Virus record (IMG/VR): IMGVR_UViG_3300048587_001023
Coordinates: 1 to 55,554 of that record
Length of the DNA: 55,554 nucleotides
Origin: a virus
Lineage: Duplodnaviria > Caudoviricetes
Strand: one strand, 5' to 3'
Shown: piece after piece, positions 6,711 through 43,393 of the stretch
Layout: every line of letters starts with the position of its first letter
Position numbering within the stretch: position 1 is the stretch's first letter
Position numbers and translations under genes: made by a program
The notes under the pieces: model-generated
Told to the model about the DNA's origin: nothing
Database searches by the model: none
What the model saw: the letters and a program-made list of their open reading frames with translations, nothing else

Positions 6711-6730
6711 ACCCCGCCACACACCAGCAC

Positions 6731-6770
6731 AGGCCCGCCCACGTCCCCACGTCGGCGGGCCTTTTCGTTT
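6731..6770 (+). terminator. Intrinsic terminator-like hairpin
   Basis: AGGCCCGCC...GGCGGGCCT followed by TTTCGTTT. Confidence 0.5.
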
Positions 6771-6852
6771 CGGGGCGACAGCGCCGACGCGGCCCGGACG
6801 GGCCTCACTCCACCCGTCTGGGCCGCACCTATCCGAGGATCCGCTTCTGAAC

Positions 6853-8241: not shown

Positions 8242-9548
8242 CCGCAGCGTGGTTCGCCGATCGGATCGAGCAGTGGCCGACGGCCAAGCTCCTCCCGTAT
8301 GCCAGAAACGCCCGAACCCATAGCGACGAGCAGGTCGCGCAGATTGCCGCATCGATTGCCGAGTTCGGCTTCACCAATCCGATCCTGGCCGGCGGCGACG
8401 GCGTGATCGTTGCCGGGCATGGCCGCCTCGCAGCCGCCCACAAATTGGGCCTGCAGGTGGTGCCGGTGGTCGTGCTCGACCATCTGAGCCCGACGCAGCG
8501 CCGGGCGTTGGTGATCGCGGATAACCGCATCGCCGAGAACGCCGGCTGGGATGACGCGATGCTGCGCATCGAGCTGACGGCGTTACAGGACGAAGACTTC
8601 GATGTAGCGCTGACGGGCTTCGATGCTGATGCGCTGGCGGAGTTGATGGCCGGCGACGAGCCGGACGGTGATGGCGCTACCGATGATGACGACGTGCCGG
8701 AGACGGCCGAGACTGCGGTTTCGCGTCCGGGCGATGTCTGGCTGCTCGGCGAGCATCGACTGCTGTGCGGCGATGCCACCGTCGCAGCGTCCTACGAGCG
8801 GTTGCTGGGTGACCAGCACGCCGACATGGTGTTCACCGATCCGCCGTACAACGTCAACTACGCCAACAGCGCCAAGGACAAACTGCGCGGCAAGGACCGC
8901 GCGATCCTCAACGACAACCTGGGCGATGGCTTCTACGATTTCCTGCTGGCAGCACTGACGCCGACCCTCGCGCGCTGTCAGGGCGGTGTTTACGTCGCCA
9001 TGTCGTCAAGCGAATTGGATGTGCTGCAGGCCGCCTTCCGCGCGGCCGGCGGTCGCTGGTCGACCTTCATCATCTGGGCCAAGCACACCTTCACGCTCGG
9101 CCGCGCCGACTACCAGCGCCAGTACGAGCCGATCCTGTACGGATGGCGCGAGGGTGCGCAGCGCCACTGGTGCGGCGACCGCGACCAGGGCGATGTCTGG
9201 AATATCAAAAAACCGCAGAAGAACGACCTGCACCCGACGATGAAGCCGGTGGAGTTGGTCGAGCGCGCGATCCGCAATTCCAGTCGCCCCGGCGACGTGG
9301 TACTTGATCCCTTCGGCGGCTCCGGCACGACGCTGATCGCGGCCGAGAAATCGGGACGGCAGGCGCGGCTGATCGAACTCGACCCGAAGTACGTCGACGT
9401 GATCGTGCGCCGCTGGCAGGACTGGTCGGGAAAGTCCGCCACCCGTGAATCTGATGGGGTGGCGTTCGATGCGTTGTCGGGCTCGCCGGCTCAGTCGCCG
9501 GCGGACTCCTCGACGATGCCGCAGTGCGTGACGAACCCCGTCAGGTAA
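8238..9548 (+). CDS. ParB-domain DNA methyltransferase (DPPY motif; probably m6A)
   Basis: VAGHGRL, TDPPY, HPTMKP, DPFGGSGTT; ATGA overlap with the first methyltransferase. Confidence 0.9.
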   Translation: MTAAWFADRIEQWPTAKLLPYARNARTHSDEQVAQIAASIAEFGFTNPILAGGDGVIVAGHGRLAAAHKLGLQVVPVVVLDHLSPTQRRALVIADNRIAENAGWDDAMLRIELTALQDEDFDVALTGFDADALAELMAGDEPDGDGATDDDDVPETAETAVSRPGDVWLLGEHRLLCGDATVAASYERLLGDQHADMVFTDPPYNVNYANSAKDKLRGKDRAILNDNLGDGFYDFLLAALTPTLARCQGGVYVAMSSSELDVLQAAFRAAGGRWSTFIIWAKHTFTLGRADYQRQYEPILYGWREGAQRHWCGDRDQGDVWNIKKPQKNDLHPTMKPVELVERAIRNSSRPGDVVLDPFGGSGTTLIAAEKSGRQARLIELDPKYVDVIVRRWQDWSGKSATRESDGVAFDALSGSPAQSPADSSTMPQCVTNPVR

Positions 9549-18074: not shown

Positions 18075-18099
18075 TTCCCCTCCACACGCAGTCCCCCGC

Positions 18100-18120
18100 A
18101 ACCCGCCGCTCGGCGGGTTT
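18100..18120 (+). promoter_or_regulatory. Stem-loop upstream of the major capsid RBS
   Basis: AACCCGCC-GCTC-GGCGGGTT then CATTTCTGGAGA; same module at 32374-32408. Confidence 0.45.
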
Positions 18121-18138
18121 CGCATTTCTGGAGATCCC

Positions 18139-19853: not shown

Positions 19854-20054
19854 ATGCCTGCGCTGCAACTCACCGCGCCGCATACCCATGCCGGCGTGTC
19901 CTATCCCGCGGGTCACGTGCTCGACGTGGATGCCCACACCGCCCGCTGGCTGCTCGATCAGGGCATCGCCATCGCCCTCGACCCGCCGGCCGAACCGCCG
20001 CCCGCCGCGCCCGCCGTGCCGGCCCGGCCCATCAAACCGCACACCAAGGAGTGA
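19854..20054 (+). CDS. Small phage protein
   Basis: PHTHAGVSYPAGHVLDVD...ARWL; RBS AAGGAGG. Confidence 0.65.
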   Translation: MPALQLTAPHTHAGVSYPAGHVLDVDAHTARWLLDQGIAIALDPPAEPPPAAPAVPARPIKPHTKE

Positions 20055-20060
20055 TTCCGC

Positions 20061-20816
20061 ATGTCCTTCTACGCTTCCTTCCAAGGCCGCGTGTACCTCG
20101 GTAAGCGCGACGCCAACGGCGCGCCGATCGAGGTGCGCTCGCCCGGCAACGTCGCCGACCTCTCGCTGTCGCTCAAATCCGATGTGATCGAGCACTACGA
20201 GAGCCAGTCCGGCCAACGCGCAGTGGATCTGCGTCTGGTCAAACAGAAATCCGCCACGGTGATGCTCACCATCGAGGAGTTCACCAAGGAAAACCTCGCG
20301 CTCGCCCTGTACGGCAACTACGTCACCGGCGCGGGCGGCAGCGTCACCGATGAACCGATCGAAGGCGCGGCGCCCACCCTCGGCGATCGCTACTGCCTGG
20401 CCCACCCCAAGGTGTCGGCACTAACGGTGGTCGATTCGGCCGCCACGCCGGCGACGCTCACGCTCGGCACCCACTACACCGCCGATGTCGACTTCGGTGC
20501 CGTCCAGTTGCTGGACATCACCGGCCTGACGCCGCCGTTCAAGGCGAGCTACACCTTTGGTGCAGTGACCGAGATCGGCATCTTCACCCAGCCACTCCCC
20601 GAGCGTTTCCTGCGGCTGGAGGGCGTGAACACCGCCGCCGGCAACGCCAAGGTGCTGGTCGAGCTGTACCGCGTCGCGTTCGATCCACTGAAGAAGCTCG
20701 ACTTCATCTCCAACGAGCTCAACAAGTTCGAACTCGAAGGCTCGCTGCTCGCGGACTCCACCAAACCCTTCGATGCGACGCTCGGCCAGTTCGGCCGCAT
20801 CGTGCAGATCGGGTGA
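20061..20816 (+). CDS. Major tail tube protein
   Basis: QGRVYLG, GNVADLSL, VELYRV; position before the chaperone and tape measure genes. Confidence 0.8.
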   Translation: MSFYASFQGRVYLGKRDANGAPIEVRSPGNVADLSLSLKSDVIEHYESQSGQRAVDLRLVKQKSATVMLTIEEFTKENLALALYGNYVTGAGGSVTDEPIEGAAPTLGDRYCLAHPKVSALTVVDSAATPATLTLGTHYTADVDFGAVQLLDITGLTPPFKASYTFGAVTEIGIFTQPLPERFLRLEGVNTAAGNAKVLVELYRVAFDPLKKLDFISNELNKFELEGSLLADSTKPFDATLGQFGRIVQIG

Positions 20817-21244
20817 GTGCCATGACCGACACGATGTTTGCGGCGCTGCCGCCGCTGGCCGATTCACTGACCATCGCCGGCGAGACCCTCGAGATCACGC
20901 CGCTGCGCGTGGGCGAACTGCCGTCGTTCGCCCGCGCCGTTCAGCCGATCGCCGGGCGCCTGTCCGTTGATCCCGACTGGTTGCGATTGCTGGCCGACGA
21001 CGGCGATGCCGTACTGCAGGCACTGGCCATCGCCTGCCGACGACCGCTCGCCTGGGTGGCCGGCCTCGCGATCGACGAGGCGATCCGGCTGGCGGAGGCG
21101 GTCTTCGCCGCGAACGCGGATTTTTTTCTGCGCCGGGTGGTGCCGGAGATCAGCCGCGCGAGCGCCGGCCTCCAGCAGCGGATGCCTGGGCTGACGTCAT
21201 TCACCGACTCGTCCGCGCCGGCCACCGCTACCCCGATCTGCTGA
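20813..21244 (+). CDS. Tail assembly chaperone (gpG-like)
   Basis: NADFF motif containing slippery T-TTT-TTT at 21121-21127. Confidence 0.75.
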   Translation: MSAMTDTMFAALPPLADSLTIAGETLEITPLRVGELPSFARAVQPIAGRLSVDPDWLRLLADDGDAVLQALAIACRRPLAWVAGLAIDEAIRLAEAVFAANADFFLRRVVPEISRASAGLQQRMPGLTSFTDSSAPATATPIC

Positions 21245-21393
21245 CCTACACCCTGGTGCAGGTGCGCTGCTTTCTGGCGGCCAGTGACCGCGCCGAGCGC
21301 GAGGCCCTGGCCGCGCAGTTCGCGCTGCTCGTCACCGCGCAGCGCGGCGGCCGCGCAGAGATCCAATCGCTGTTGAAAGAACTGAGCTCATGA
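21127..21393 (+). CDS. -1 frameshift extension of the tail chaperone (gpGT-like); not in the ORF track
   Basis: -1 frame open from the slip site to TGA 21391-21393: ...WADVIHRLVRAGHRYPDLLTYTLVQVRCFL...LKELSS*. Confidence 0.75.
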   Translation, partial: SAPGGAGDQPRERRPPAADAWADVIHRLVRAGHRYPDLLTYTLVQVRCFLAASDRAEREALAAQFALLVTAQRGGRAEIQSLLKELSS

Positions 21394-21467
21394 CAAAACG
21401 ACAGGACTGGCGTTTTGCACGCCCGAAGGGCGCCCGTCAGGGTGGCGCACAGGGATGTGCGCCATGA
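21390..21467 (+). repeat. 78-bp ATGA-to-ATGA junction element, copy 1 (25-aa mini-ORF, CsrA-type hairpin)
   Basis: 77/78 identical to 29525-29602; reads MTKRQDWRFARPKGARQGGAQGCAP*. Confidence 0.9.
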
Positions 21468-22117
21468 AGCTGTCCCTGACCACCGGCGGCCTGCTCGATC
21501 CCAAGCGGCTCGACAGTTGGGTACCGGCCAAGCGCCGGGCCATTCGCAAAGCCGTCGAGGCCGGAATGAAGACGGCGGGCAAGGACATCGCCCTGCTCGC
21601 ACAGGCGCGCATGGGCTCGGCCTTCACGGTGCGCAAGGCGGGCTTCGTGAAGTCGATGCGGCATCGACTCTACGCCGGCAGTCCGGAGCGCTTCCCGGCG
21701 CTGCGAATCGGCTCGCGAATTCCCTGGCTGGGCATCCATCTGCGTGGCGGCAGCATCAGCGGCCGGATGCTGATTCCGCTGCTGCCCGAACACCGCCGGA
21801 TCGGCCGCCGGGCCTTTCGCCGTGTGATCGACGCGCTGATGCGCTCGGGCAATGCCTTCTTCATCGAGCGCAACGGCAAGGTCATCTTGATGGCCGAAAA
21901 CATTCGGGAGAACGCCTCCCAACTCGGCCGCTTCCGGCGTGCCGAGCGCGCGCGCCGCGGTGCGGGCGCGATTCGCCGCGGAGAGGAAATCCCCATCGCC
22001 GTGCTGGTGCCCACCGTGGTGCTGCGCCGCCGCTTCGACCTGTCGGGCCTCGTTCGCTCGCAACTGCCCAAGCTCGCCGACGCCATCGTGAAGCAACTGG
22101 ACGCCCATGGCCTCTGA
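21464..22117 (+). CDS. DUF6441-like basic phage protein (possible neck/tail completion protein)
   Basis: Arg-rich, GSRIPWLGIH, IPIAVLV; SD AGGGA 8 nt upstream. Confidence 0.7.
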   Translation: MKLSLTTGGLLDPKRLDSWVPAKRRAIRKAVEAGMKTAGKDIALLAQARMGSAFTVRKAGFVKSMRHRLYAGSPERFPALRIGSRIPWLGIHLRGGSISGRMLIPLLPEHRRIGRRAFRRVIDALMRSGNAFFIERNGKVILMAENIRENASQLGRFRRAERARRGAGAIRRGEEIPIAVLVPTVVLRRRFDLSGLVRSQLPKLADAIVKQLDAHGL

Positions 22118-25067
22118 CCGCGCGCAAATCCTGATCACCGCGGTCGACCAGACGCGGGCGGCGCTCGCCTCGGTGAAGGGCAACCTCGAGGGCCTGTCCG
22201 CGGCGGCGAGCAAAGTCAGTGGCGTGCTGGCGAGCCTGGGCGTTGCACTGTCGGTGGGCGCCCTGGTCGCCGCCGGTCGGGCCGCGCTCAATACCGCAGA
22301 CGATCTCGCCAAGCTCGCGCAGAAGACCGGCCTGTCGGTCGAGTCGCTTTCGCTGCTGAAGCCAATCGCCGAGCAGGCTGGCGTCTCGTTGGAGGGGCTG
22401 GCCAAAGGTATGCAACGGCTCGCAACCTCGATGATCGAGGCTGCGGGCGGATCTCAGGCACAAGCCGAGGTGTTTCGCCGCCTCGGCGTATCAGTCACCG
22501 ACGCGGCGGGCCAGATTCGCCCGACCGAGCAGGTGCTGCTAGACCTGTCCGATGCGTTTGCGTCGATGCCGGACGGTGCCGAAAAATCGGCGCTGGCGGT
22601 GCGCTTGTTCGGCAAGAGCGGCGTCGAGCTGATCCCCTTCCTGAATCAAGGGCGCGCCGGCATCGAGCAGTTGAAGGAGCAGTTCAAGGCGCTCGGCATC
22701 GAGATCAGCGGCGACACCGCACGTGCCGCCGAGAAATTCAACGACACCCTCGACACCGTCAAGCAGGCGCTGCAAGGCATCGCGATGCGCATTGCCGAAG
22801 CGGCGCTGCCAGCGCTGCAGCAGTTGGCCGATGCGCTGGTCGTCGCGGCCAGCCACGGCAGCGAGATCACTACCGTCGTGCGCGTGCTCGGCGAGGTGAT
22901 CTTCGCGGCGCTAGCGGTCAAGGGCGCGACCGCGGTTGCGGCGTTGCTGCAGTCGGTCACCGTGCTCAAGGCCGCCTTCATGCGGTTCTTGCCGGTTCTG
23001 GCGGCGGTCGCGGTGTGGGAAGTCGGCAGCGGCATCGTGCAGGCGATCCAGGACATCCGCGAAACCGATCGCATGCTGGATCAACTCGCGCGCCAGCGCG
23101 AGAACCTGGCGCTGCTCACCCAGGCCATGGACGAGTTGGCCGCGAACGGAGTCGTCAGCGTCAAAACGCAGATGGCGCTGGCCGCGCTGGCCGCCGAGCG
23201 CCTGAAGGAAACGCTGCCCGCCACCGCCGATGCGCTGCGCGGCATCCAGGGCGCCGCCACCCAAGCCGGCGAGGCCATCCGCCAATCCCTCGATGCCGAG
23301 GCCAAGAAGGCCGCCGAAACGGTCAAGCAGTTGGCGACCACCCATCAGAAGGTCGCCAGCGATATCAAGGCGATCTGGGATGCTCGCGTCGCCGCCATCG
23401 AGGCCAACTACAAGCGGCAGGAGGCCGCCGCGCAGAACTCGGCGCGCTCCGAATCGGCTGCGATTCGGGACACCACCCGCGCACTGGTAAACGCCGAGCG
23501 CGACAAATTGACGGCAGTCGAAGCCGGTGCGCGGCAAGCTGAAGCCACCTGGCGCACTACCTATGCGCAAGCCGTGGCCTTGGCCCGCGCGGCCGGTCAG
23601 GACGTGCAGGCGGTCGAGCGGCAGGCGGTCGATGCGCGCATCGCGCTCTACCGGCAGTTGGAATCCGCCTACCGCGCCACGGTCGATCGACTGATCGCCG
23701 AGGAACAACGCCATCTGCAGGCGGCCAAGGCCGCCGATGACGCGCGGCTCAACCTGCGCCTGTCGGTCGAGGATCGCATCCGCGAGCTCTCGCGCCGGGG
23801 CATGGACGAGTACGCGGCCTATCAGGACCGGCTGCGACAGATCGATGAGAAGCAGGCGCAGGCGCGCGATGCCCTCGCCGCCGGCAACTATGAGCAGGCC
23901 CGCAAGCTGGCCGAGGAAGCCATTGCGCTCGCCGAGCGCTCGGCCTCGGCGGTGACCAAACAGGTCGAGCAGAACGGCAAGGCCATCACCCAGACCCTGG
24001 TGTCGGAAGGCCAGGCTGCTGCCACCGCCATTGCGGAGATCAAGGACGCCGCCGGCATCGCCGATGCCGCCCTCGATGGCCTGGGCGATGCCCACCGCCG
24101 CGCGGCCTCGGCGGCGGGCGACGGCGCCGATCAAGCCAAACGCGCGCTGGCCTCGGTCACCTCCGAACTCGGCAAGCTGCGCGAGCAATTGCTGGCGCAG
24201 GACACGCTCAAGCTCGAGGTCGATCTCGATGCCGCGCGCGACGGTATCGCCCGGATCAAAGCGCTGACCGAGGCCGAAACCCTGATCGCGCAGATCCAGA
24301 TCGATACCCGTGAGGCGCGGGCCTCGCTGGAGAAACTGCAGGCGGATGTCGACAACCTGTCCTTGCTCGCCACCGTCGAGGTCGACAGTCGCCAGGTGCT
24401 CGACGATATCGACCGGCTCAAGCGCACGCTGACCGACGTCGGTGTCGACATCCCTGCGCTGGTGTCGTTCGATCAACCGCGGCAGGCGCTGGCGGCCTTC
24501 GCGACGGACGCCAAGATCGTGCTCACGGCGCCGACCGAGGCTACCCATACGCCCAACCCCGATCTGTCGCGCTACCGCGCGGCCGTATCGGAACTCTCGC
24601 GCCCGACCAGCAGCACCCACACGATCTACGTCAGTCGAGTGCAGACCAACGCGCAGGGCGGCTTGATTCAGCGCTTGGCCGAAGGGGGTCAGGCGGTGAC
24701 GGGTGCCTTCCGGCGCGTGGCCGGTCGCGTGCTGGGTCCGGGCACGGAGACGTCGGATTCGGTGCCCGCGCTGCTGTCCCACGGCGAGTTCGTGATTCGC
24801 GCCGCCAGCGTGCGCCGGTTCGGCGAAGGGTTCTTCGCCGCGCTCAATGCAGGCTTGCTGCCTGCACTTCCGCGCTTTGCTGTGGGTGGCGCGGCCGCAA
24901 CCACGCTGCGGAGTGTGATCGGCCACGCCGACACCGGATCGGCCTCGGCGCGCGAAGTGGTGGATCTGCGTTTCCATGTGGGCGGCAAGACGCACGCGGT
25001 GCAGTCCTCACGCGAGACGGCGATGCATCTGGCTCAGGCACTGCGCGAACTGTCGCGGGGCGCGTGA
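22107..25067 (+). CDS. Tail tape measure protein
   Basis: ILITAVDQT start, LFGKSG motif, long Ala-rich helical body, C-terminal GPGTETSDSVPALLSHGEFV. Confidence 0.92.
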   Translation: MASDRAQILITAVDQTRAALASVKGNLEGLSAAASKVSGVLASLGVALSVGALVAAGRAALNTADDLAKLAQKTGLSVESLSLLKPIAEQAGVSLEGLAKGMQRLATSMIEAAGGSQAQAEVFRRLGVSVTDAAGQIRPTEQVLLDLSDAFASMPDGAEKSALAVRLFGKSGVELIPFLNQGRAGIEQLKEQFKALGIEISGDTARAAEKFNDTLDTVKQALQGIAMRIAEAALPALQQLADALVVAASHGSEITTVVRVLGEVIFAALAVKGATAVAALLQSVTVLKAAFMRFLPVLAAVAVWEVGSGIVQAIQDIRETDRMLDQLARQRENLALLTQAMDELAANGVVSVKTQMALAALAAERLKETLPATADALRGIQGAATQAGEAIRQSLDAEAKKAAETVKQLATTHQKVASDIKAIWDARVAAIEANYKRQEAAAQNSARSESAAIRDTTRALVNAERDKLTAVEAGARQAEATWRTTYAQAVALARAAGQDVQAVERQAVDARIALYRQLESAYRATVDRLIAEEQRHLQAAKAADDARLNLRLSVEDRIRELSRRGMDEYAAYQDRLRQIDEKQAQARDALAAGNYEQARKLAEEAIALAERSASAVTKQVEQNGKAITQTLVSEGQAAATAIAEIKDAAGIADAALDGLGDAHRRAASAAGDGADQAKRALASVTSELGKLREQLLAQDTLKLEVDLDAARDGIARIKALTEAETLIAQIQIDTREARASLEKLQADVDNLSLLATVEVDSRQVLDDIDRLKRTLTDVGVDIPALVSFDQPRQALAAFATDAKIVLTAPTEATHTPNPDLSRYRAAVSELSRPTSSTHTIYVSRVQTNAQGGLIQRLAEGGQAVTGAFRRVAGRVLGPGTETSDSVPALLSHGEFVIRAASVRRFGEGFFAALNAGLLPALPRFAVGGAAATTLRSVIGHADTGSASAREVVDLRFHVGGKTHAVQSSRETAMHLAQALRELSRGA

Positions 25068-27235
25068 TGACCAAGCAGTCTGCAACCGTCGTCCGCGTCC
25101 ACGAATGTCCCTGGCCGGCATTCGAGACCACCATCGACCCGTGCGACCGCGATCTGTACGACTGGATCGAAAGCGTGCCCTCGGTGCTGCGCACCGTGTC
25201 GATGAACGTCGAGTTCCAACGCATCACGATGGTGACCTCGCAGAAGCAGTACGAGGCGTGGTCGCGCTGCGAGGCCAGTCGCTACGAAACGCCTTCGGCA
25301 CCGGCAGCGGGCTTGCGCATCGCCATCGCCAGCCAAGTCGCCGGCAGCACGGCGAGCACCGACCAGGAAGAATCCCCGGAGACCGTGTCGGCGCGCCTGT
25401 CGCTGTCCTTCACGCCAAGCACGGTGACGCCCCACACCTGCCCGCCGATCGCCTATCCCGTGCTGCATCGCGTGGCGCAGGTCGGCATCAATTCCTACCT
25501 GCAAAACACCCAAGTCGAGTTCACCACCGCGCCCAGCACGATTTGGGACGGTATCGGTCCCTGGGAAGGCAGCAAGGTGTTCATGTGTTGGACGCGCACG
25601 AACTGGTCGCTGCGCAGCCTGCAGCACTTCTTTCGTGGCCAGCTGCGGATCCGCAATCCCAAGGTGTTTGATCATTGGGTGCAGTTCGCTGCGTTCGACG
25701 CGCCGCCAGCGCCACAGAGCCTGGTCGTCCGCGGCCAGCCCTACAACGCCAGCGCGCTGCAGGTGCTGACCATTGGACCGGTCAGCGGCCAAGGCTGGCG
25801 AGTGATCACCGAGTACTGCAATCAGGACACCGGCGAGACCCTGCTGGTGGACCGCTGGCTGACCGGTGGCCTGTGGTCCGAGGTGGGATTGGGCGGCTAT
25901 GGGACCGAGCATTCGTTCTTCGACACCCTCCCGAGCAACGCGCCCACCGCCACCGACGGCACCTGGCTGCACCGCGTCTGCGTCTACGCCTTCCAGCGGC
26001 CATCGACGGCCTTCAGCGTGCGCTACGACGGCATCGAACTGGTCGCGGGGCATTCGGCAATCACGCCCTCGATCACCACCGAATACCAACCCGGCGTCAG
26101 CACCGGCATTGCCTCCGTCGATGACTCGGTCGATATCCGCACGGTCGGCGCGAACAAGGCTGCTTTCCGCATCTTGGGCATTGAACCGGTGCCGGGCTTC
26201 GGGGTCCGCTTCACCGTGCAACTGATCAACGAGTTGCACTTCGATGCCTGCATCGTCAGCCCGTTCCTGTCCGGCATCGGCGATCGCAGCTCGTGGCAGA
26301 CCAATACCGGCATGCACTTTGAGATGCCGCCGGTGTGGGTGGTGCGAAACCTGCCCGCGAACTCGGCCAGCGAGCCGATTGGCGTGCTGGTGCCGATGCG
26401 CATCCTCGAAACCGGTGATTGGCCACTGCGTGATTTGCATTGGCGGCTGGCCATCACCCAGCAGGCCTACCCGGCCCCGCTCAATCATTTTGCCGATGGC
26501 GTGTATGGCGGCGGCAGCAATGCGCTCTACCCAAACATCGGCAGTTGGCCACCACCGGGCTATCGGATCAGCAGCAATCCCGAGCAGGTCGCCTTTCTGC
26601 TCGCCGGTTACCTGGAGAACGGTGATGTGGTGTGGAACAGCGCCTGGGATGGCTCGGCCGATACCCAGCGCGTACTGGTCACGGTGCCCGTGCGCCGCGC
26701 TCCCGGCGCCGAAGTGATCGCCATGCGCGATCCGCAGTTCTCTAGCACTGCGGTGTCGTACTTCGAACAGAAGCCGTTTCGCGCCTACATCGAGTGGACC
26801 GCGGAGAAGCGCATTTCCAGCAACCCGGAAGTCTGGGAGCCGCGCACCGGTCGCGTGGCGCTGGGTCTGGACCTGCAACCGGCACTGACCCGCTACGGAC
26901 GCACGCTGACGGTGCCGGTCGCGGCCGGCCGTCCGATGTGGTCGCCCTACTACGGCAAATGGATCACCGTGTTCGAGTCCTGGCCCGGAGGCGATGTCGA
27001 GGAGTTGGAGGTCCATCTCGTCGATACCTATTTGCGACCGAACTATCCGGCGAGCCAGGGCTGGCGGAACTTTCAGTACACCTCGCTCAAGAAGCCCTAC
27101 CTCACCGCCAACGTGGCGTGGTGGTTCGCGAGCACGCCCTTCCAGGACCAGCCCGGCTACCTGCACGCGCTCACCCTGATCAAAGAAGCCCCCAACGCCG
27201 ACACCGTCGACGTGGCGCTCGTCGGCTACTGGTAG
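25067..27235 (+). CDS. Large hypothetical virion/tail protein (722 aa)
   Basis: TGATG-coupled to the tape measure gene; phage-like codon use; Trp/Pro/Thr-rich; no recognised motif. Confidence 0.7.
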   Translation: MTKQSATVVRVHECPWPAFETTIDPCDRDLYDWIESVPSVLRTVSMNVEFQRITMVTSQKQYEAWSRCEASRYETPSAPAAGLRIAIASQVAGSTASTDQEESPETVSARLSLSFTPSTVTPHTCPPIAYPVLHRVAQVGINSYLQNTQVEFTTAPSTIWDGIGPWEGSKVFMCWTRTNWSLRSLQHFFRGQLRIRNPKVFDHWVQFAAFDAPPAPQSLVVRGQPYNASALQVLTIGPVSGQGWRVITEYCNQDTGETLLVDRWLTGGLWSEVGLGGYGTEHSFFDTLPSNAPTATDGTWLHRVCVYAFQRPSTAFSVRYDGIELVAGHSAITPSITTEYQPGVSTGIASVDDSVDIRTVGANKAAFRILGIEPVPGFGVRFTVQLINELHFDACIVSPFLSGIGDRSSWQTNTGMHFEMPPVWVVRNLPANSASEPIGVLVPMRILETGDWPLRDLHWRLAITQQAYPAPLNHFADGVYGGGSNALYPNIGSWPPPGYRISSNPEQVAFLLAGYLENGDVVWNSAWDGSADTQRVLVTVPVRRAPGAEVIAMRDPQFSSTAVSYFEQKPFRAYIEWTAEKRISSNPEVWEPRTGRVALGLDLQPALTRYGRTLTVPVAAGRPMWSPYYGKWITVFESWPGGDVEELEVHLVDTYLRPNYPASQGWRNFQYTSLKKPYLTANVAWWFASTPFQDQPGYLHALTLIKEAPNADTVDVALVGYW

Positions 27236-27246
27236 GACCACCGCCA

Positions 27247-27627
27247 ATGATTGTTCTGGACGGCATTGCCTTGCCGATGGGCCTGCTGTGGTCCGATGAA
27301 TTTGCCGCGGGGTCGGTCGCGCAAACCATGCGTCGCACGCTCGATGGCTCGCTGGTCGTGTTCTACAGCGCGCTGCATGCCGGTCTGCCGATCACGCTCG
27401 AATCGCAGGCCGATGCCGGCTGGTTGCAACGCCATCAGGTCGAAGCCCTGGCGCTGCGCGCAGCCAGTCCCGGCGGCGTCTATCCGCTGACCCTGCGTGG
27501 CCAGACCCGCGCCGTGATGTTCCGCCACCACGACGCACCCGCCTTCGAGGCCAAGCCGCTGGTTGCGCTCGCCACGCCGCAGGCCGGCGACTACTACCTC
27601 GCCACGCTCAAGCTCATGACCGTCTGA
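27247..27627 (+). CDS. Putative distal tail (Dit-like) protein
   Basis: LLWSDEF...RRTLDGSLVV...PITL. Confidence 0.65.
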   Translation: MIVLDGIALPMGLLWSDEFAAGSVAQTMRRTLDGSLVVFYSALHAGLPITLESQADAGWLQRHQVEALALRAASPGGVYPLTLRGQTRAVMFRHHDAPAFEAKPLVALATPQAGDYYLATLKLMTV

Positions 27628-27672
27628 GCAGGCGGCTTCATTCAACACCCGCAGTACCGAAGGACTTCGCTC

Positions 27673-28683
27673 ATGCCCATTCTCGACAATGAAATCGTCT
27701 GGCGCCCCTCGGCGCTGGTCTCCGACAGCACGCCCGCGCAAAACGGTGGCCGCATGGCCAGCGCGTTGCTGATCTCCGGCGTCAAAAACAACCTGTTCCC
27801 CGACGTTTCTCAAGCCGAGCGGCTCGCCGGCTCGGTGAAGTGGCGCAAGGCCTTCGTGCACGTAAACAGCGTTCAGGACACGGCCCTGCTCAATGTGCGG
27901 CTGTTCCTGGATGCGCTGACGCCCGCGGGCGATTTCGTGCTGTTCCAGCCGGGCACCCAGACCGACACCGAGAACCAGATCAGCGGTCGGGTCTATGGCG
28001 TCGGTACGCTGTTCTCGCCGATCACCGCGGGCAGCAGCCAGTTTCAGGTCGCCTGCGAGAACCCCAGCGAGTACGCCACCTTGCAGCCATTTCGCGTCGG
28101 CGATGTGTTGCGCGTGGCGGACCGGCCAAGTGTTGGCGGCGCCGGCAACGAAGACTGGGTGACGGTCACATCAATCACATACGGCGCCGACTACGCCACC
28201 GTCGATGTGGCCTCCCCGCTGGCCAACAGCTACGGCACTGCGAACACCGTCGTCTCCAGCGTGTTGGAAGTCGCCAGCGTTGCCGGCACCGTCAGCAGCG
28301 TGGTGGTGACCAGCGTCGGCGGCAGCTTCAATTCCGCGACGGTCGGCAATTTGGTCGCACACAACAAAGGCGCGGTGGCCGAGAGCTGGACACTGACCTT
28401 TACCGGCGCCACCAGTTACACCGTCAGCGGTACCAGCGTCGGCGCGCTGCCGAGCAGCGGCTCCACCAGCGCCGATTACGCGCCCATCAACCCGAGCACT
28501 GGCACGCCCTATTTCACGATCAAGGCGCTCGGCTGGGGCGGTAACTTCCAGACCGGCAACACCATGACGTTCACCACCACGCCCGCCGCGATCCCGGTCT
28601 GGTATCGACGCCAGGTGCCGGCCGGCACCTTCAGCCTGGCCAACGACTATGCATCGCTCGCCATCCATGGGGAGAGCGCCTGA
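27673..28683 (+). CDS. Tail structural protein
   Basis: NGGRM...NNLFPDVSQAERLAG...RKAF; Thr/Ser/Gly-rich beta-type composition. Confidence 0.7.
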   Translation: MPILDNEIVWRPSALVSDSTPAQNGGRMASALLISGVKNNLFPDVSQAERLAGSVKWRKAFVHVNSVQDTALLNVRLFLDALTPAGDFVLFQPGTQTDTENQISGRVYGVGTLFSPITAGSSQFQVACENPSEYATLQPFRVGDVLRVADRPSVGGAGNEDWVTVTSITYGADYATVDVASPLANSYGTANTVVSSVLEVASVAGTVSSVVVTSVGGSFNSATVGNLVAHNKGAVAESWTLTFTGATSYTVSGTSVGALPSSGSTSADYAPINPSTGTPYFTIKALGWGGNFQTGNTMTFTTTPAAIPVWYRRQVPAGTFSLANDYASLAIHGESA

Positions 28684-29528
28684 TGGCGCGCGTCGGCTTC
28701 AAGAACGCCTATGCGGCCGCGGCGTTCGACAAGCCCGCGGTGGCTGCCTTGTTCGACAGCATCAAGACCACGCTGATCGATGCCGGCTTTCAGGTCGTGC
28801 TCAACACGCCGAACGCCATCGACGTGGTGCCGATCGGGACCAATGCCGCGGTGCCGAATGACGACTCGCAGCACTGGGCCATCGCCTTCGAAGACCTTGG
28901 CGCGAACGGACAGATTCTCGCCAGCGCCGTGTTCGGCGCGAACTACCTCGACCCGGGCGCGCTGGTGAATACCCTCGCCGTGGTCAGTACCGAATGGCTC
29001 GATAGCCCGAGCCCGGCGCTGACCGTCTGGTTCGCCGCCGACGGCGCGGCCGGCTGGTGGTGGCTGCATGCCGCTATCGCAGACAGCAACAGCAGCACGG
29101 GCGTGGACACGCGCTTCGCCTGCGCTGGCGTCAGCACGCGGCGTTATCCCGCCGACCACTACCAAGGCCTCAGCACGCGCTACGGTCTGTGGGACCCGTG
29201 GGGCGATTTCTATCCGGCCTATGCCCGCCAGACCGACGGCGGTGTCGACTCCGGCGCCTGGACCGGCACCTGGTCGCTCTTCGGGGAAGGCTGGAGCTAC
29301 AACGCTCGGCGCCATCCCGGCTCACCGCTGCCCAAGATGGCGGTGCCGCAGTTCCCGAACCGCGATGGCAACGCTGCCTGCCTGTACGGCGAGTTCAACG
29401 AGATCCTGATTCTCACCGATGGCTATGCGCAGGAGGAAACAGTCCTGCCCGGCTGGGTGGCCATGATCGGCAGTGACAACGACCAACCCTTTGCGGTGCC
29501 GGCACCGCCGAGCTTCGCGCTGCTATGA
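28683..29528 (+). CDS. Hypothetical tail-region protein
   Basis: TGATG coupling; 281 aa, aromatic-rich. Confidence 0.7.
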   Translation: MARVGFKNAYAAAAFDKPAVAALFDSIKTTLIDAGFQVVLNTPNAIDVVPIGTNAAVPNDDSQHWAIAFEDLGANGQILASAVFGANYLDPGALVNTLAVVSTEWLDSPSPALTVWFAADGAAGWWWLHAAIADSNSSTGVDTRFACAGVSTRRYPADHYQGLSTRYGLWDPWGDFYPAYARQTDGGVDSGAWTGTWSLFGEGWSYNARRHPGSPLPKMAVPQFPNRDGNAACLYGEFNEILILTDGYAQEETVLPGWVAMIGSDNDQPFAVPAPPSFALL

Positions 29529-29602
29529 CAAAACGACAGGACTGGCGTTTTGCACGCCCGCAGGGCGCCCGTCAGGGTGGCGCACAGGGATGTGCGCCAT
29601 GA
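29525..29602 (+). repeat. 78-bp ATGA-to-ATGA junction element, copy 2
   Basis: Differs from copy 1 only at one hairpin-loop base (GAA vs GCA); reads MTKRQDWRFARPQGARQGGAQGCAP*. Confidence 0.9.
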
Positions 29603-31314
29603 CCATCGGTCATGCGCTCGCCCTGGAATTCGGGGCGGGCCTGCACATTGCCTCCGGCCGGCCGCGCCTCAAACGACAGTTCGTGGCCGCCTGGGGCAAG
29701 ACCGAAGTGTTCCTCGCTCAGGCGACCTGCTGGGATCTCACCCGTCAGCGCGCCTGGCAGCACCGCAGCGAGTGGGCCCTTCGCATGGCGCAACAGTTCC
29801 GCGGAATCTACGGCCTGCGCGTGGAGCGTGGCCTGCAGCATCCCTACGGCGAGTTGCGTCGGCATCGGCATCGGTGGATGGCGATCTATGGCGATCTGGC
29901 GGTGAGGTCCACTCGCTTCGCCGTGGCCTACGGCGATCAGATCACCGTCCGAATCAGCAATCACTTCGCAATCGTCTACAGCGGCCGCCGTGACGTGCGG
30001 GCGCAGCACCGCGCCGACTACGCGGCGGTCGCGTCGAGCACGATCCGCACCCGACTGACGCTTGCTTACGGCGCCACCACGCCGATCCGCGTCCAGCAAC
30101 GCGTCCCGTGGGGACTTTTGGCCGGCTGCAAGCAATCCGTGCGCATGCCCTATTGGCTCAGCACGCGCGTGGCCGCGCGCCAGGTCAGCGCCTACGCGAT
30201 CACCGACACCAATCCGGTGACGGGTGAGCTCGCCACCTCGTGGTCCTTGCTGGAAGACGCCCGCCTGCAGGCAGTGATGAATACGCCCGAGCTGACCTGG
30301 CGCGAGCGTCGCGTACCGATCATCGAAGCCACGCTGTCCTGCGATGAAGGCAGCCCGGTCTGGATGGCCAGCGTCGAGCTCGCGAGCACGGAGGATTTCG
30401 CCGCCATCGCTATTGGCGATCGCATCCGCCTCGTGCTCGGGCTGGAAGTCTTCGAGTTGATGGTGGATGGCAAAACCCTGTCGCGCAGTTCGCCGACCGA
30501 GCAACGCGCCGAGATCACGGCGCTATCGCCGCTGACGCTGCTGGATGCGCCGTTTGCGAGCACGTTGCGCTACTACGCCGCGGAACCTGTCTCTGCTCGC
30601 GGCGCGGTGACCGATTTGATCGGCACGGTCGATTGGCAGATGCCGGATTGGATCATCCCGGCCGGCCGCTTGCTGCTGGAAGGCACGACGCCGCTGGCGG
30701 CAGCACGCAGCATCGTGGCGGCCATCGGCGGCATCGTCGAGAGCCAGCCAGATGGCTCGGTGGTCTGCCGGCGCCGGCATCCGGTGAGCATTCCCGACTA
30801 TTTATGGGCCGGCGTCGCACACGCGCTGTTCGATGCCGATGTGCTGTCGGCGCAGGCGCAGATCTCGCCGTTGCGTGGCTTCAACCGGGTGACCGTGGCC
30901 AACGAGGACGGCGCCGGCGTATCCACGGGCGATCAACTCGAGTACGTGCCCGACGAAGACAGCAGCACGCTCGGCACGGTGCGCGCTTACCTGGGCATCG
31001 ATCGGCCGGTCGTGCTGGCGCATACCGGCCATCCGGCCACCGTTGTGACCAGCCTGAGCGCAGTCGTGCGCCGGGAGACGGAAGTCGTCGAGTTCATCGA
31101 AGGTCGCGCACGCACGCGCTATCCAGTGACCACCATCGAATCGCTGGACTGGCAGCACGCCGGGCTCGGCGATGTCACCTACGCAGGCACCCGCCTCGAT
31201 GCCGCGACCGCGGGCTACAGCCTGCTCCGCATCACCTACACCACCACCTCGTTGAACTGGCGCGTGGGCCTGTCGGCCGACGAAGACGTCCAGTTCGTGC
31301 TCGTCGATTCGTGA
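29599..31314 (+). CDS. Tail protein with about 14-aa Y/W-G repeats and a hub-like C-terminal region
   Basis: Periodic ...YG/WG repeats in the N-terminal third; IVAAIGGIVESQPDGSVV segment. Confidence 0.7.
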   Translation: MTIGHALALEFGAGLHIASGRPRLKRQFVAAWGKTEVFLAQATCWDLTRQRAWQHRSEWALRMAQQFRGIYGLRVERGLQHPYGELRRHRHRWMAIYGDLAVRSTRFAVAYGDQITVRISNHFAIVYSGRRDVRAQHRADYAAVASSTIRTRLTLAYGATTPIRVQQRVPWGLLAGCKQSVRMPYWLSTRVAARQVSAYAITDTNPVTGELATSWSLLEDARLQAVMNTPELTWRERRVPIIEATLSCDEGSPVWMASVELASTEDFAAIAIGDRIRLVLGLEVFELMVDGKTLSRSSPTEQRAEITALSPLTLLDAPFASTLRYYAAEPVSARGAVTDLIGTVDWQMPDWIIPAGRLLLEGTTPLAAARSIVAAIGGIVESQPDGSVVCRRRHPVSIPDYLWAGVAHALFDADVLSAQAQISPLRGFNRVTVANEDGAGVSTGDQLEYVPDEDSSTLGTVRAYLGIDRPVVLAHTGHPATVVTSLSAVVRRETEVVEFIEGRARTRYPVTTIESLDWQHAGLGDVTYAGTRLDAATAGYSLLRITYTTTSLNWRVGLSADEDVQFVLVDS

Positions 31315-31323
31315 GGACCCTGC

Positions 31324-31836
31324 ATGGCCAACGCCACCATTCGAGTTCAATTCGGCAGTCCAGACGGCGCCGGCGGCGCCGCGGGCGCACACCTGTCGGC
31401 GGAAGTCGACACCCGCCCCGAAGGCCTCAACGGCGGACGCTCGTCCTTCAGTCCGGGCGAAACCGCCTACATCCTGGTTTATAAGTCCGACAACGTCAGC
31501 ATCACCGACACGATCTGCTCGGCCGGATCGCTCACGGCGCAAGGCAGCGCCGTGGTGCCGGTGACCGAGGAACTGATGTTCGAGGATTCCGAGATCGCGA
31601 CGCTCGGCAAACCCGCACGCTCCGGCCTGTCGCAGTCGGTCTGGTACGGGCGCAGCCTCGGTGCGCTCACCCTGCAGTCGGACAAGGTGACGATCCGCGC
31701 GGCAAGCAAGGGCGTGGCGGTGGCCAAGGTCACCTACGACGCCTTGGCCATGGTCTATGCCCTGACATCGCCCGCCACCCTCAACGGCGAAACCGACTTC
31801 AGCATCCTCGCCTTGATCAAGGGCAGCGCCACATGA
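31324..31836 (+). CDS. Hypothetical tail protein
   Basis: RBS GAGGA; coupled to the next gene. Confidence 0.7.
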   Translation: MANATIRVQFGSPDGAGGAAGAHLSAEVDTRPEGLNGGRSSFSPGETAYILVYKSDNVSITDTICSAGSLTAQGSAVVPVTEELMFEDSEIATLGKPARSGLSQSVWYGRSLGALTLQSDKVTIRAASKGVAVAKVTYDALAMVYALTSPATLNGETDFSILALIKGSAT

Positions 31837-32129
31837 TCATCGAGGTCTACCGCGGCGACGGCCTGCGCGAAGGCCTGCCGATCATCGAGCCGCTGCTGTC
31901 CGACGACGCGCTGATCCATCGCGGTCGCGCCGAGATGGATGCCCACGCCCACACCATGAACCGAGTTGATCTGGCGGTCGTCTTCCGGCCTGGGTTTCGC
32001 CTCGGACAACTCATCGAAGCGACCGACCCGACCAGCGCCCACGCCTATCGCGCCAAGGTGACCGGTATCCAGATCCGGGTGACCCAGGCCGCCATCGACA
32101 CCCGCTTGAATCTGGAGCAACCGCGATGA
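31833..32129 (+). CDS. Hypothetical tail protein (hub-fragment-like)
   Basis: ATGA overlaps on both sides; RGRAEMD...RLGQLIE. Confidence 0.65.
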   Translation: MIIEVYRGDGLREGLPIIEPLLSDDALIHRGRAEMDAHAHTMNRVDLAVVFRPGFRLGQLIEATDPTSAHAYRAKVTGIQIRVTQAAIDTRLNLEQPR

Positions 32130-32344: not shown

Positions 32345-32373
32345 CCCGCAGCCCCCATCCCCGCGCTACCACC

Positions 32374-32400
32374 ACCCGCCCGCGAGGCGGGTTTTTCATT
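32374..32400 (+). terminator. Intrinsic terminator after the tail genes
   Basis: ACCCGCC-CGCGA-GGCGGGT followed by TTTTCATTT. Confidence 0.6.
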
Positions 32401-32414
32401 TCTGGAGACCGCCC

Positions 32415-33678: not shown

Positions 33679-35781
33679 CTACGGTTTCAAGTCGCCCAGA
33701 AACTCCGACTCCGGCGACACGCCGGACGCATGCAAAAACTCGCGCGCCCGTGTGCACGCCACGTAGAGCAAATGGCGTTCCGTCGCGTAAACCTCGTCGA
33801 GATCGCTCTCGTCGCTCACGCTCTCGATACGGGATTGCAGCGGGATAACCTCATCGTCGCACGCCATGACTGCCACAGCGCGAAACTCCAGGCCCTTGGC
33901 AAAGTGCATGGACGCGATTGATGCCTTCCCGACCACCGACTGCACTTTTTCGTCCAGCACGACGAAGGGCAACCCCGCGCGTTGCAGCGCCTGTTCGGCG
34001 CGATCCAGTTCAGCGGCGCTGCGAACGAACACGCCGATTTCATGCGGAGCCAGTCGTGCCTCGGATTGAGCCTTGAGCCAATCGCCCACGCCTTCGATCT
34101 CCAGCGTTTGCGACTTGAACTCGCGCACGGTAGGCGCCGGGCCATTGAACACTGACACCGTGCCCTTACGGGACTCGGTGTTGCCGTCCACATCGGCGAT
34201 CTCGTCGGCGAGCAGCCGGTCCGCCCGCGCCCGAATCTGATGCGAAGTGCGGTAGTTGACGATCAGTGTTCGCGAGCGACCACGGACATCCACGCCGAGA
34301 GACTTCCACGAGAACGCTGTCTGGAAAATGCGCTGACCCAGGTCGCCTGCGAAGAACAGTGCATTCGGGCGCGCACCGCCCACTGCGGCTAGAAACTTCA
34401 ATTGCGCCACCGACACGTCCTGTGCCTCATCCAACACCACATGCTCGAACGGCGGATGCTTGCGTTTGGGTACTTCGCCCGCCAGCCGCGTGAAGACACC
34501 CGCCATCGAAACCAGTCCTTCGGCCTTCAGTTCCTGCCGGACAGCGTCGAACACCGACCACAACGTCGATCGCTGTGCGTCAGACAATCGGGTCTTGCGC
34601 CCCAGCCGCTTGACGTCTCGGTAGTCCTCCCACGTTTCCAACTGCCACGCATCGACGACCTGCTGCCACTCGCCGAAAAGAAAGGCCTCACTGAAGCGTG
34701 AACTGGATCCCCCCGCGCCATGTTTCGCCAGTCGCGCCTTCACATCGGCGATGGTCGCGAGCCGAGCCTTGCCGAAACTGGCCTCGTAAAGCCGCAGGCC
34801 CACCGCATCCAGTGCGGCGACTTCGATGCGCTCGCCCAGCCTCGGCTCCGAGCTGATCAGGTGTCGCAACTTCGCGCGCAGTGCAGTCGCAAGACCTTCA
34901 GAAAACGTGGTCAACAGCACCCGCGCATCGGGATTGGCGCGCACCAGGTGGGCCGCACGATGCAGAGCCACTATGGTCTTGCCGGTGCCAGCCGAGCCGG
35001 AAACGCGCGCCGGGCCGTTGTAGTCGCGGTGGACGAACTGACGCTGATCCGGATGCAGGAAGATTGTCCACTTCTCCCATGGCGCCTCGAAAGCGCGCTC
35101 AAGCTCCTCCACGTTCGCAACGACGCGGAAGCGGCGCAGTGCGTCGGGGTGCTCGAAGGGATCGGCATTCGGCGCCACGGCCACCGGCGCCACCTTGGGC
35201 ATGCCGCCGGTCGCCAGTTCCAAGAGGGCTTCGCCTGCCTCGGCGGGAAGATGGTCGACCAAGTCGAGTAGGGAATCCTCGTCGGCGCCGCGCACTTCAT
35301 CCAGCCATTCCGCCGGCACACCGAAACCGAGCAGCAACTGCTCCGGCGTCTGGGCGAACAGCAGGGGCTTTAGCGTGCGCCTGGCCGCCATTGCGTGCAC
35401 CGGTGCAGGTGCCTCCACCTCGACCACTTTCCGCACGCGGATTTCCTCCACGCGCTCGCGTACCTCCACGAACTGCGCCGCGCCCGTGGTCGGGTGCACT
35501 TCCAGCTTGCGCCGCTCGGCCCATGCATAGGCCTTGTCGTGATGATCGACAAAGCACAGCAGCAGGCTGCTGGCGGACTTGTGCACGATCAGCCGGAGAT
35601 CAGCGCCGACCCGAACTGACCAGAATCGCGGGTCCTTGGCACGGTCGAGCTTGTGGAAGCTCATGCCAGGACTGGATGGATTGAGCTGCAAGTCGAAGGC
35701 GGTGGTCTTGACCGCCTTCTGCTCGTCCCCGGTTAGCCGCGCGAGACTATCGGTGAAAGTGTCGGCAATGCGGAAATCCAT
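33679..35781 (-). CDS. UvrD-like SF1 helicase with N-terminal RelE/ParE-like domain
   Basis: GSAGTGKT, LDEAQD, GDLGQRI, NYR, AKGLEF, YVACTRAR; N-terminal PGMSFHKL...WSVRV...DHHDKAY. Confidence 0.85.
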   Translation of the reverse strand: MDFRIADTFTDSLARLTGDEQKAVKTTAFDLQLNPSSPGMSFHKLDRAKDPRFWSVRVGADLRLIVHKSASSLLLCFVDHHDKAYAWAERRKLEVHPTTGAAQFVEVRERVEEIRVRKVVEVEAPAPVHAMAARRTLKPLLFAQTPEQLLLGFGVPAEWLDEVRGADEDSLLDLVDHLPAEAGEALLELATGGMPKVAPVAVAPNADPFEHPDALRRFRVVANVEELERAFEAPWEKWTIFLHPDQRQFVHRDYNGPARVSGSAGTGKTIVALHRAAHLVRANPDARVLLTTFSEGLATALRAKLRHLISSEPRLGERIEVAALDAVGLRLYEASFGKARLATIADVKARLAKHGAGGSSSRFSEAFLFGEWQQVVDAWQLETWEDYRDVKRLGRKTRLSDAQRSTLWSVFDAVRQELKAEGLVSMAGVFTRLAGEVPKRKHPPFEHVVLDEAQDVSVAQLKFLAAVGGARPNALFFAGDLGQRIFQTAFSWKSLGVDVRGRSRTLIVNYRTSHQIRARADRLLADEIADVDGNTESRKGTVSVFNGPAPTVREFKSQTLEIEGVGDWLKAQSEARLAPHEIGVFVRSAAELDRAEQALQRAGLPFVVLDEKVQSVVGKASIASMHFAKGLEFRAVAVMACDDEVIPLQSRIESVSDESDLDEVYATERHLLYVACTRAREFLHASGVSPESEFLGDLKP

Positions 35782-43386: not shown

Positions 43387-43393
43387 TTCCCTG

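Follow-up and report, generated by a model that had tools for sequence, protein, structure and literature searches.

An inserted RrB-type RNA cassette with predicted CsrA/RsmA hairpins at gene junctions of a tailed phage

The window analysed here is a single virus sequence of 55,554 bp with 65% G+C (IMG/VR record IMGVR_UViG_3300048587_001023; Duplodnaviria, Caudoviricetes), in which positions 1 to about 33,200 of the + strand form a lambda-like siphophage module with the structural genes. Within this module a 78-nucleotide (nt) direct repeat of the form ATGA...ATGA occurs twice, at 21390-21467 and at 29525-29602. We find that each copy is very probably a precisely inserted cassette of the RrB family, placed at an ATGA stop-start overlap. 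The best explanation of our observations, held with moderate confidence and drawn from sequence comparison, is that of an inserted cassette of the RrB/tRNA-linked repeat (TLR) type that has its own ribosome-binding site and is predicted to gate the downstream genes through CsrA/RsmA.

Repeat, fold and insertion at gene junctions

The two copies are 99% identical and, as a preliminary description of the sequence had noted, their sole mismatch lies in the loop of hairpin 2 (21426, A vs C). In both, the 5' ATGA holds the TGA of the upstream frame and the 3' ATGA holds the ATG of the downstream gene; the inserted unit is 74 nt long (21394-21467, equivalently 21390-21463) and its 3' end reads ...GCGCCATGA, directly followed by the gene. 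The hairpin strings quoted in the preliminary description each occur exactly twice in the window (21394-21417 and 29529-29552; 21443-21464 and 29578-29599), with 0 expected from shuffles. Folding of cassette 1 with RNAfold returned exactly the four consecutive hairpins that had been described (Table 1), with a minimum free energy of -36.9 kcal/mol and z = -3.49, and only 1 of 200 shuffles was as stable. Hairpin 4 by itself reaches -18.3 kcal/mol (z = -4.97), a value attained by none of 200 shuffles. The arrangement around the start site is also as described: the final paired base of the last stem is the A of the start codon 21464-21466, the Shine-Dalgarno AGGGA lies in the hairpin and ends 8 nt before the ATG, and the GGA within it occupies 21453-21455. 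A second CAGGA is indeed found in hairpin 1.

At the DUF6441 junction, where cassette 1 is located, the cassette was found in none of 80 viral-contig loci with DUF6441 relatives (55-80% protein identity), and the closest of these relatives, with a 75-80% identical protein, show a plain ...tcgATGAaa overlap in its place. Public contigs were also aligned to 20800-22300, with no sequencing run containing more than 0.20 of the sampled words. One 2005-nt contig (run X3, approximately 92% identical) runs from 21387 straight on to 21462, with exactly 74 nt missing, and an 11.8-kb contig (run X2) skips 91 nt and has 17 other letters instead, for a net difference of 74. The sole RNA-library contig matched to this region is that of a cassette-less relative. 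Taking into consideration that (i) none of the 80 DUF6441 loci has the cassette and (ii) relatives skip exactly 74 nt, the cassette is, judged from these alignments, not an ancestral regulator of the tail genes, but a 74-nt insertion. For the second junction, no relatives of the 571-residue downstream protein were confirmed in viral contigs, and the empty site is known for junction 1 only.

Over approximately 5.4-22.8 kb the window is in synteny, at 66-81% nucleotide identity, with the prophage of Mizugakiibacter sediminis skMP5, which reads TGAcccATG at the DUF6441 junction. This prophage contains two cassettes, with identities of 98.8-100% and 91-92% to those of the window, which precede a ParB-methyltransferase gene and the tail terminator gene, two junctions at which the window has a bare ATGA. 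The cassette is therefore far better conserved than its surroundings, and lies at different junctions in related phages. Cassette 2 is in fact 100% identical to an M. sediminis prophage copy and to several IMG/VR contig copies. Elsewhere, the genes behind the cassette encode a tape measure protein, tail assembly chaperones, a tail terminator, a Mu-type portal, ParB-methyltransferases and type III restriction-type helicases, and the genes downstream of different copies are mutually unrelated. Both precise presence or absence at orthologous sites and many dispersed copies, the marks of MITE/REP-like elements, are found. These comparisons indicate that the cassette is a horizontally mobile, portable module and not a regulation specific to tail genes.

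The second ParB-methylase junction of the window (8238-8241), which is filled by a cassette in the Mizugakiibacter prophage, reads ...gcgccATGAccg.

Covariation, loop conservation and relationship to RrB

Exact searches with hairpin 1 gave 12 viral-contig loci and 13 genome loci, the latter including prophage copies in Mizugakiibacter, Macondimonas, Rhodanobacteraceae, Chromatiaceae, Paraglaciecola and gammaproteobacterial metagenome-assembled genomes (MAGs). Five Pectobacterium chromosomal copies lie approximately 90 nt downstream of a tRNA gene and have no gene behind them. Loop-agnostic patterns, in which only the outer arms of hairpin 1 were fixed, gave 22 true copies among 28 matches in viral contigs and 84 among 91 in metagenomes; the false positives (six viral loci and seven metagenome matches) were removed before alignment. 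Of 76 distinct copies, 74 were aligned, leaving out L003, whose cassette is identical to window copy 2, and L170, identical to L150b. A third apparent copy in the Paraglaciecola MAG, with 3 mismatches, was discarded as a chance match inside a gene.

Across the 74 copies, 93.5% of the cells of the four-hairpin structure are paired, vs 80.0% in shuffles, and 196 cells carry changes on both sides of a pair, vs 60 in shuffles; none of 500 shuffles attained the observed covariation values. As a control, sliding the partner by 1-3 columns left 31-43% of cells paired. Compensatory changes are abundant in hairpins 2 and 4, affecting four of the five pairs of hairpin 2, and one pair of hairpin 4 is found as C-G in 29 copies, G-C in 29, A-U in 6 and U-G in 3. 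Hairpin 3 keeps its stem across the family and has a variable loop. A GGA is present in the loop of hairpin 1 in 68/74 copies and in that of hairpin 4 in 70/74, which, together with the covariation, answers the check on stems and GGA loops proposed in the preliminary description. The loop of hairpin 4 reads C-A-N-GGA-N-G (CANGGANG) in 59/74 copies, or in 67/74 if the first N may be missing (CA(N)GGANG), and its closing C-G pair is kept in 69/74.

The copies that precede no gene are informative on this point. In the 50 copies without a following open reading frame of at least 60 codons, GGA is found in loop 4 in 46 and GGAGG in 3; the GGA, the flanking A and the closing C-G pair occur together in 44, and the N positions and stems vary. 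Since the loop-4 GGA is kept in copies that precede no gene, its conservation does not merely reflect that of a Shine-Dalgarno. The non-junction copies adjoin tRNA or 23S-5S rRNA genes, often between two terminators. In marine metagenome contigs, three copies next to 23S-5S rRNA genes (L148, L181, L194) have the opposite orientation to these genes, and their hairpin 1 is directly adjoined by the 5S 3' end in reverse complement; unlike these, Escherichia coli RrB is on the rRNA strand.

Copies may also be arranged head to tail, and six such tandems (L150, L193, L142, L189, L200, L207) are joined exactly at ATGA/GTGA. One genome locus (G429:C11:155361-155972) gives at least seven overlapping model matches spaced by approximately 76 nt. 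The covariance model R1, built from the 74 copies, has two matches in Mizugakiibacter, each of them a prophage copy, three in one MAG and a single one in another, eight in the Paraglaciecola MAG and 98 in Pectobacterium odoriferum. The approximately 98 copies of P. odoriferum are dispersed and often tandem, follow the same four-hairpin plan and in many cases end in CCATAAAAAA. Among 151 sampled genomes of the phylum, 38 have R1 matches at E <= 1e-6, many of them with at least 30.

R1, which draws on environmental and prophage copies and contains no E. coli sequence, was searched with filters off against the rrnB end and the tyrT region of E. coli K-12. It scores the window copies at 93.9 and 93.3 bits, and matches the rrnB T1-T2 spacer, that is RrB (L230:336-417), over its full length with 46.6 bits (E 2.6e-11); its matches to the tyrT repeats are weak (9.9-11.5 bits, E 0.1-0.28). 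The first and last hairpins of RrB, which are homologous to those of the cassette, have GGA in their loops. Rfam has no family covering the window cassette: at the gathering score there is no match in the window, and at E up to 10 the cassette gives only chance-level matches to C4 and anti-hemB and none to RtT. The RtT model (RF00391) finds the four tyrT repeats and misses, at its threshold, both RrB and the Pectobacterium repeats, the non-coding copies of which reach 26.5 and 23.6 bits, the gathering score being 45. With blastn, the cassette has no match in 50,697 isolate phage records and a Pectobacterium copy has none in E. coli genomes; the E. coli relative is therefore visible to the covariance model only. 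Because a model free of E. coli sequence finds RrB, and RtT misses both RrB and the cassette, the cassette belongs, by covariance-model homology, to the RrB branch of the TLRs.

According to Stenum et al. 2021 (PMC8144298), knowledge of TLRs in E. coli goes back to 1978, and there is no consensus on their function or origin. In that work RrA, RrB and RrF are small RNAs, TLRs of the T1-T2 spacers of rrnA, rrnB and rrnD. CsrA was the protein most enriched by RrB in an MS2 pull-down and bound it in electrophoretic mobility shift assays with a dissociation constant of about 100 nM, and changing three of its five GGA to UUU abolished the CsrA shift (PMC8144298). Processing of the rRNA precursor releases RrB, and recognition of its 3' repeat by RNase E has been proposed (PMC8144298).

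A candidate CsrA/RsmA operator and the alternatives

The sequence ACAGGGATGT, at 21449-21458 and 29584-29593, fits (A/U)CANGGANG(U/A), with GGGA as the loop of the predicted hairpin. Each cassette holds two GGA sites, the one in the hairpin-1 loop (CAGGA) lying 49 nt upstream of the hairpin-4 GGA, a spacing within the bridging range of a CsrA dimer. The form (A/U)CANGGANG(U/A) is the CsrA/RsmE hairpin consensus, as in hcnA-RsmE, and selection in vitro (SELEX) gave RUACARGGAUGU (PMC6849547 and PMC2896534); the exact consensus match of the preliminary description is confirmed. A CsrA reading of the hairpins is supported by homology and conservation, and we consider it rather probable that CsrA would bind the cassette in vitro. 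The preliminary description had gone further, placing two tail-assembly genes under CsrA/RsmA control. Of this claim the CsrA-type nature of the hairpins is supported, by conservation and by the homology to RrB; the notion of a regulation belonging to those genes is not, given the 0/80 loci and the diverse genes downstream.

The distribution of csrA was also considered. It is present in four of the five genomes that carry the cassette, whether in a prophage or as chromosomal copies, the miss being a MAG. Among the 151 sampled genomes, 106 have csrA (PF02599), including 36 of the 38 R1-positive genomes vs 70 of the other 113 (Fisher p 6e-5); because both traits follow relatedness, this co-occurrence is only consistent with a link and is not independent evidence of one.

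In the explanation that we prefer, the last hairpin of the cassette supplies the Shine-Dalgarno, and its 3' end the ATG, used by the downstream gene. On the late mRNA, a host CsrA/RsmA dimer may bind the two GGA loops, as on E. coli RrB, and when bound would lock hairpin 4 over the Shine-Dalgarno and the start codon, as in glgC and ColE7 cel. Translation of the DUF6441 gene and of the gene for the 571-residue protein would then fall at high free CsrA and rise when CsrA is sequestered. Both copies also contain a 25-codon ATG-to-TGA mini-open reading frame (mini-ORF), the ATG of which overlaps the upstream TGA and the TGA of which overlaps the downstream ATG; every 78-nt junction copy that starts with ATGA keeps this mini-ORF open and in frame, and in the 77-nt junction copies it is out of frame. 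In the 78-nt form, ribosomes could pass through this frame from the upstream stop to the downstream start. At cassette 1 few are expected to arrive by this route, because the upstream stop belongs to the product of a -1 frameshift (G-T). That CsrA binding has a measurable effect on the downstream genes seems to us somewhat doubtful. The most far-reaching form of the idea, a mobile translational operator in which an RrB/TLR-family module moves among gammaproteobacterial phages, lands at ATGA and replaces coupling with a CsrA/RsmA-gated ribosome-binding site, we advance only as a tentative and rather unlikely possibility.

Several points weigh against CsrA gating. By itself a match to WCANGGANGW is not significant, with 5 occurrences in the window vs 4.89 expected, and a Shine-Dalgarno, too, takes the form of a GGA over a start site. 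Of the 24 junction copies, 14 read the stronger GGAGG, suggesting selection for ribosome binding, and the window copies retain GGAUG. The family does not depend on the hairpin-4 GGA for its persistence: this GGA is missing in 9 of 23 dispersed chromosomal copies inspected (loci of P. odoriferum genome G005, e.g. L239 and L244-L253, and L254-L256 of genomes G002 and G004). With regard to the folded strand, the complementary strand is just as stable when folded (-35.8 kcal/mol, z -3.85), the wobble pairs are not decisive (19 G.U vs 15 A.C), and the three rrn-linked marine copies antisense to rRNA genes fit a DNA-level mobile repeat better than a sense RNA. The stability of hairpin 4 is such that it may block initiation with or without CsrA, and any regulation by the cassette is dispensable, because relatives do well without it. 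No csrA is found in the window record, which is incomplete, and comparison of 6 kb of its non-phage end with 400 genomes of the class yielded a single short match, from which no host could be named. As for RrB itself, its effects in vivo were only modest, and the predictor used by its authors gave CsrA scores of less than 0.01 to the 19 remaining E. coli TLRs (PMC8144298).

The main rival reading is that of a selfish or near-neutral mobile repeat that spreads among phages and stable-RNA operons and is tolerated since it replaces the start signal that it displaces, the GGA serving ribosome binding or being a legacy. Precise presence or absence at junctions, nearly identical copies (98.8-100%) at different junctions of phages that are 66-81% identical, unrelated downstream genes, tandems joined at ATGA/GTGA and the multiplication of R1 matches in Pectobacterium and in many of the 38 positive genomes are all expected of such a repeat; the same applies to the copies antisense to rRNA operons, to the loss of the hairpin-4 GGA in dispersed copies and to a mini-ORF kept open wherever a 78-nt junction copy starts with ATGA. 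On the other hand, the A-flanked GGA and closing C-G pair in 44/50 non-junction copies point to a GGA reader acting in trans, and the E. coli homologue RrB binds CsrA (PMC8144298). Neither a transposase nor a homing nuclease was seen in the window, and the cassette ends (GACAAAAC... vs ...CCATGA) are non-complementary and form no terminal inverted repeats. ATGA stands on both sides in most junction copies, but 5' ACGA, AGCA, GGGA, GCGA, GACA and TTCA also occur, which leaves no fixed target-site duplication. We regard the selfish repeat as possible, though unlikely.

The same binding-site evidence, namely covariation, GGA loops and the homology to RrB, could also be taken to mean, in line with the alternative offered in the preliminary description, that late in infection the abundant late mRNA, whose two cassettes contain four GGA hairpins, titrates host CsrA and shifts host physiology, leaving the tail genes unregulated. 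RrB has been discussed as a possible sequestering RNA (PMC8144298), and non-coding relatives of the cassette form tandem arrays. However, two cassettes per genome compare poorly with the approximately 18-22 sites of CsrB (PMC8144298, PMC2896534), and RrB competed only at far higher concentrations than CsrB (PMC8144298). Relatives exist that have no cassette, among them the source of the RNA-library contig mentioned above. Such a sponge appears to us improbable.

Quite improbable, too, is a role as punctuation for RNA processing or stability, where the four stable hairpins would act as a barrier to RNase E or exonucleases, or as a cleavage signal, and segment the late transcript much as TLRs are processed from tRNA and rRNA precursors. 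The setting of the non-junction relatives in tRNA and rRNA operons, often between two terminators, and the processing of RrB with its proposed RNase E recognition (PMC8144298) would favour it; the window copies, however, have no tRNA or 5S 3'-end repeat of the kind linked to RNase E, and the fixed A-N-GGA-N loop is left unexplained.

The mini-ORF, present in both copies, could encode a 25-residue arginine-rich peptide, MTKRQDWRFARPKGARQGGAQGCAP, like the 'protamine-like' tpr frame inside rttR in an E. coli TLR, but this is very improbable and was rejected: compensatory stem changes alter its residues (G-G-A-Q-G-C-A-P vs G-V-A-Q-G-G-A-T), the 77-nt junction copies are out of frame and non-junction copies have no ATG. 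The E. coli tpr (L231:1088-1177) encodes 29 arginine-rich residues and has no obvious likeness to the basic frame of the window. An intrinsic terminator or attenuator between tail genes, suggested by the G+C-rich hairpins, can be dismissed almost entirely, as hairpin 4 is not followed by a U run (AUGAAGCUG and AUGACCAUC come next in copies 1 and 2) and essential tail genes lie downstream in the same operon.

Gene context and comparison with known systems

The coordinates of the cassette hairpins and of the genes are collected in Table 1. Upstream of cassette 1, the region 20813-21393 has the canonical G/G-T layout of a tail assembly chaperone, with a slippery TTTTTTT at 21121-21127, and the TGA of the G-T extension sits within the 5' ATGA of the cassette. 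The DUF6441 gene is placed between the chaperone and the tape measure, and its start at 21464 is supported, because the Pfam alignment begins at residue 1 and homologues begin there too. At cassette 2, the TGA of the 281-residue gene (29526-29528) falls in the 5' ATGA.

Table 1. Positions of the cassette hairpins and of genes in the window
Feature	Position	Strand	Remarks
Hairpin 1, cassette 1	21394-21417	+	stem CAAAACG/CGTTTTG, loop ACAGGACTGG, GGA (part of CAGGA) at 21404-21406
Hairpin 2, cassette 1	21420-21432	+	CGCCC-GAA-GGGCG
Hairpin 3, cassette 1	21433-21442	+	CCC-GTCA-GGG
Hairpin 4, cassette 1	21443-21464	+	TGGCGCACA-GGGA-TGTGCGCCA; 21443-21451 pairs with 21456-21464; loop GGGA 21452-21455
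Hairpins 1 to 4, cassette 2	29529-29552, 29555-29567, 29568-29577, 29578-29599	+	start codon 29599-29601
Terminase gpA, lambda-type portal, S49 protease, decoration protein	within 1 to about 33,200	+	
Major capsid E, tail terminator, major tail protein, tail assembly chaperone, DUF6441 protein, tape measure, distal tail genes	within 1 to about 33,200	+	
Tail assembly chaperone G	20813-21244	+	phrog_1442
-1 frame extension of the chaperone (G-T product)	open from 20971 to TGA 21391-21393	+	-1 frame matches phrog_13355
DUF6441 protein, downstream of cassette 1	21464-22117	+	217 residues; PF20039, 9.3e-79, alignment from residue 1
Tape measure	22107-25067	+	
281-residue gene, upstream of cassette 2	28683-29528	+	no family match
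571-residue tail-region protein, downstream of cassette 2	29599-31314	+	phrog_24698, 1.1e-39; phrog_6079 'tail protein', 5.4e-18
UvrD-like helicase	33679-35781	-	
N6/N4 methylase	37458-40307	-	
Type III res-like helicase	40309-43503	-	
AbiEi-type regulator	48972-49577	-	
Beta-lactamase-family protein	53311-55125	+	

Further observations concern the rest of the record. The right-hand 22 kb (33679-55125) is unlike phage structural or replication DNA and is possibly a defence island or host flank; the CheckV completeness of the record is 57. Two ParB_N plus N6_N4 DNA methylase genes follow each other at 6691-9548. A 36-nt repeat, 81% identical between its copies at 18099-18134 and 32373-32408, consists of a G+C hairpin, a T run and then CATTTCTGGAGA; the first copy lies directly upstream of the major capsid start (18139), and the repeat looks like a terminator plus ribosome-binding module used twice. 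In a megablast search of 20000-32000 against phages, nothing matched except the major tail gene of 8 Ralstonia phage records, at approximately 76%.

In the literature searched, which was not complete, we found no description of TLR/RrB-like elements in phages or of CsrA control of phage structural genes. What would be new here is an RrB-type RNA architecture found as a precisely inserted cassette at phage gene junctions, near-identical between diverged phages, that retains the CsrA hairpin consensus and provides the start signal of the next gene. The finding joins TLRs, Csr/Rsm regulation and phage genome mosaicism, and the naturally filled and empty junctions constitute matched controls. If CsrA binds, the cassette would act as a transposable operator at the post-transcriptional level, through which the output of phage structural genes, or the availability of host CsrA, would track host physiology. 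Should the mobile-operator idea be true, any gene behind a cassette would be wired to the Csr state of the host, and TLRs would be the chromosomal face of a CsrA-binding mobile RNA element.

Among known systems, RtT RNA (the TLRs of the tyrT operon, or rttR) belongs to the same wider TLR family, and the sub-threshold RtT matches come from Pectobacterium copies that have hairpin 1 of the window; the window cassette differs in giving no RtT match even at E 10. With REP/BIME, ERIC and MITE-like repeats the cassette shares many copies per genome, tandem arrays, precise presence or absence and strong structure. Unlike them, it has neither terminal inverted repeats nor a linked transposase in view, keeps single-stranded GGA loops and, in one form, supplies the next start codon.

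Two-site CsrA operators offer a closer functional parallel. In the lysis gene of ColE7 (cel), CsrA represses through a site in an upstream intercistronic hairpin loop and a site over the Shine-Dalgarno (PMC2896534); glgC and cel resemble the cassette in having one GGA in an upstream hairpin loop and another over the Shine-Dalgarno, and cel, in addition, in having its intercistronic site on a mobile replicon (PMC2896534). These operators are nevertheless fixed to particular genes, whereas the cassette, whose CsrA site is predicted, is self-contained, stands before unrelated genes and is absent from orthologous junctions.

The closest relative is E. coli RrB, which has the same four-hairpin plan and GGA in the first and last loops, a correspondence of GGA to hairpins that we read from its sequence. 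TLRs as a class lie in tRNA or rRNA operons, and carry at their 3' end a repeat of the final 18-19 nt of the preceding tRNA or rRNA (PMC8144298). The window copies, in contrast, lie among phage structural genes and show no such repeat, tRNA-end-like flanks being seen in non-junction relatives such as L154. RrB is non-coding, lies behind the 5S rRNA with a terminator on either side, and has as its last 18 nt a copy of the 5S 3' end (PMC8144298), whereas the window cassettes, without a 5S or tRNA repeat, stand between phage protein genes, end in the next start codon and present their last loop as its Shine-Dalgarno.

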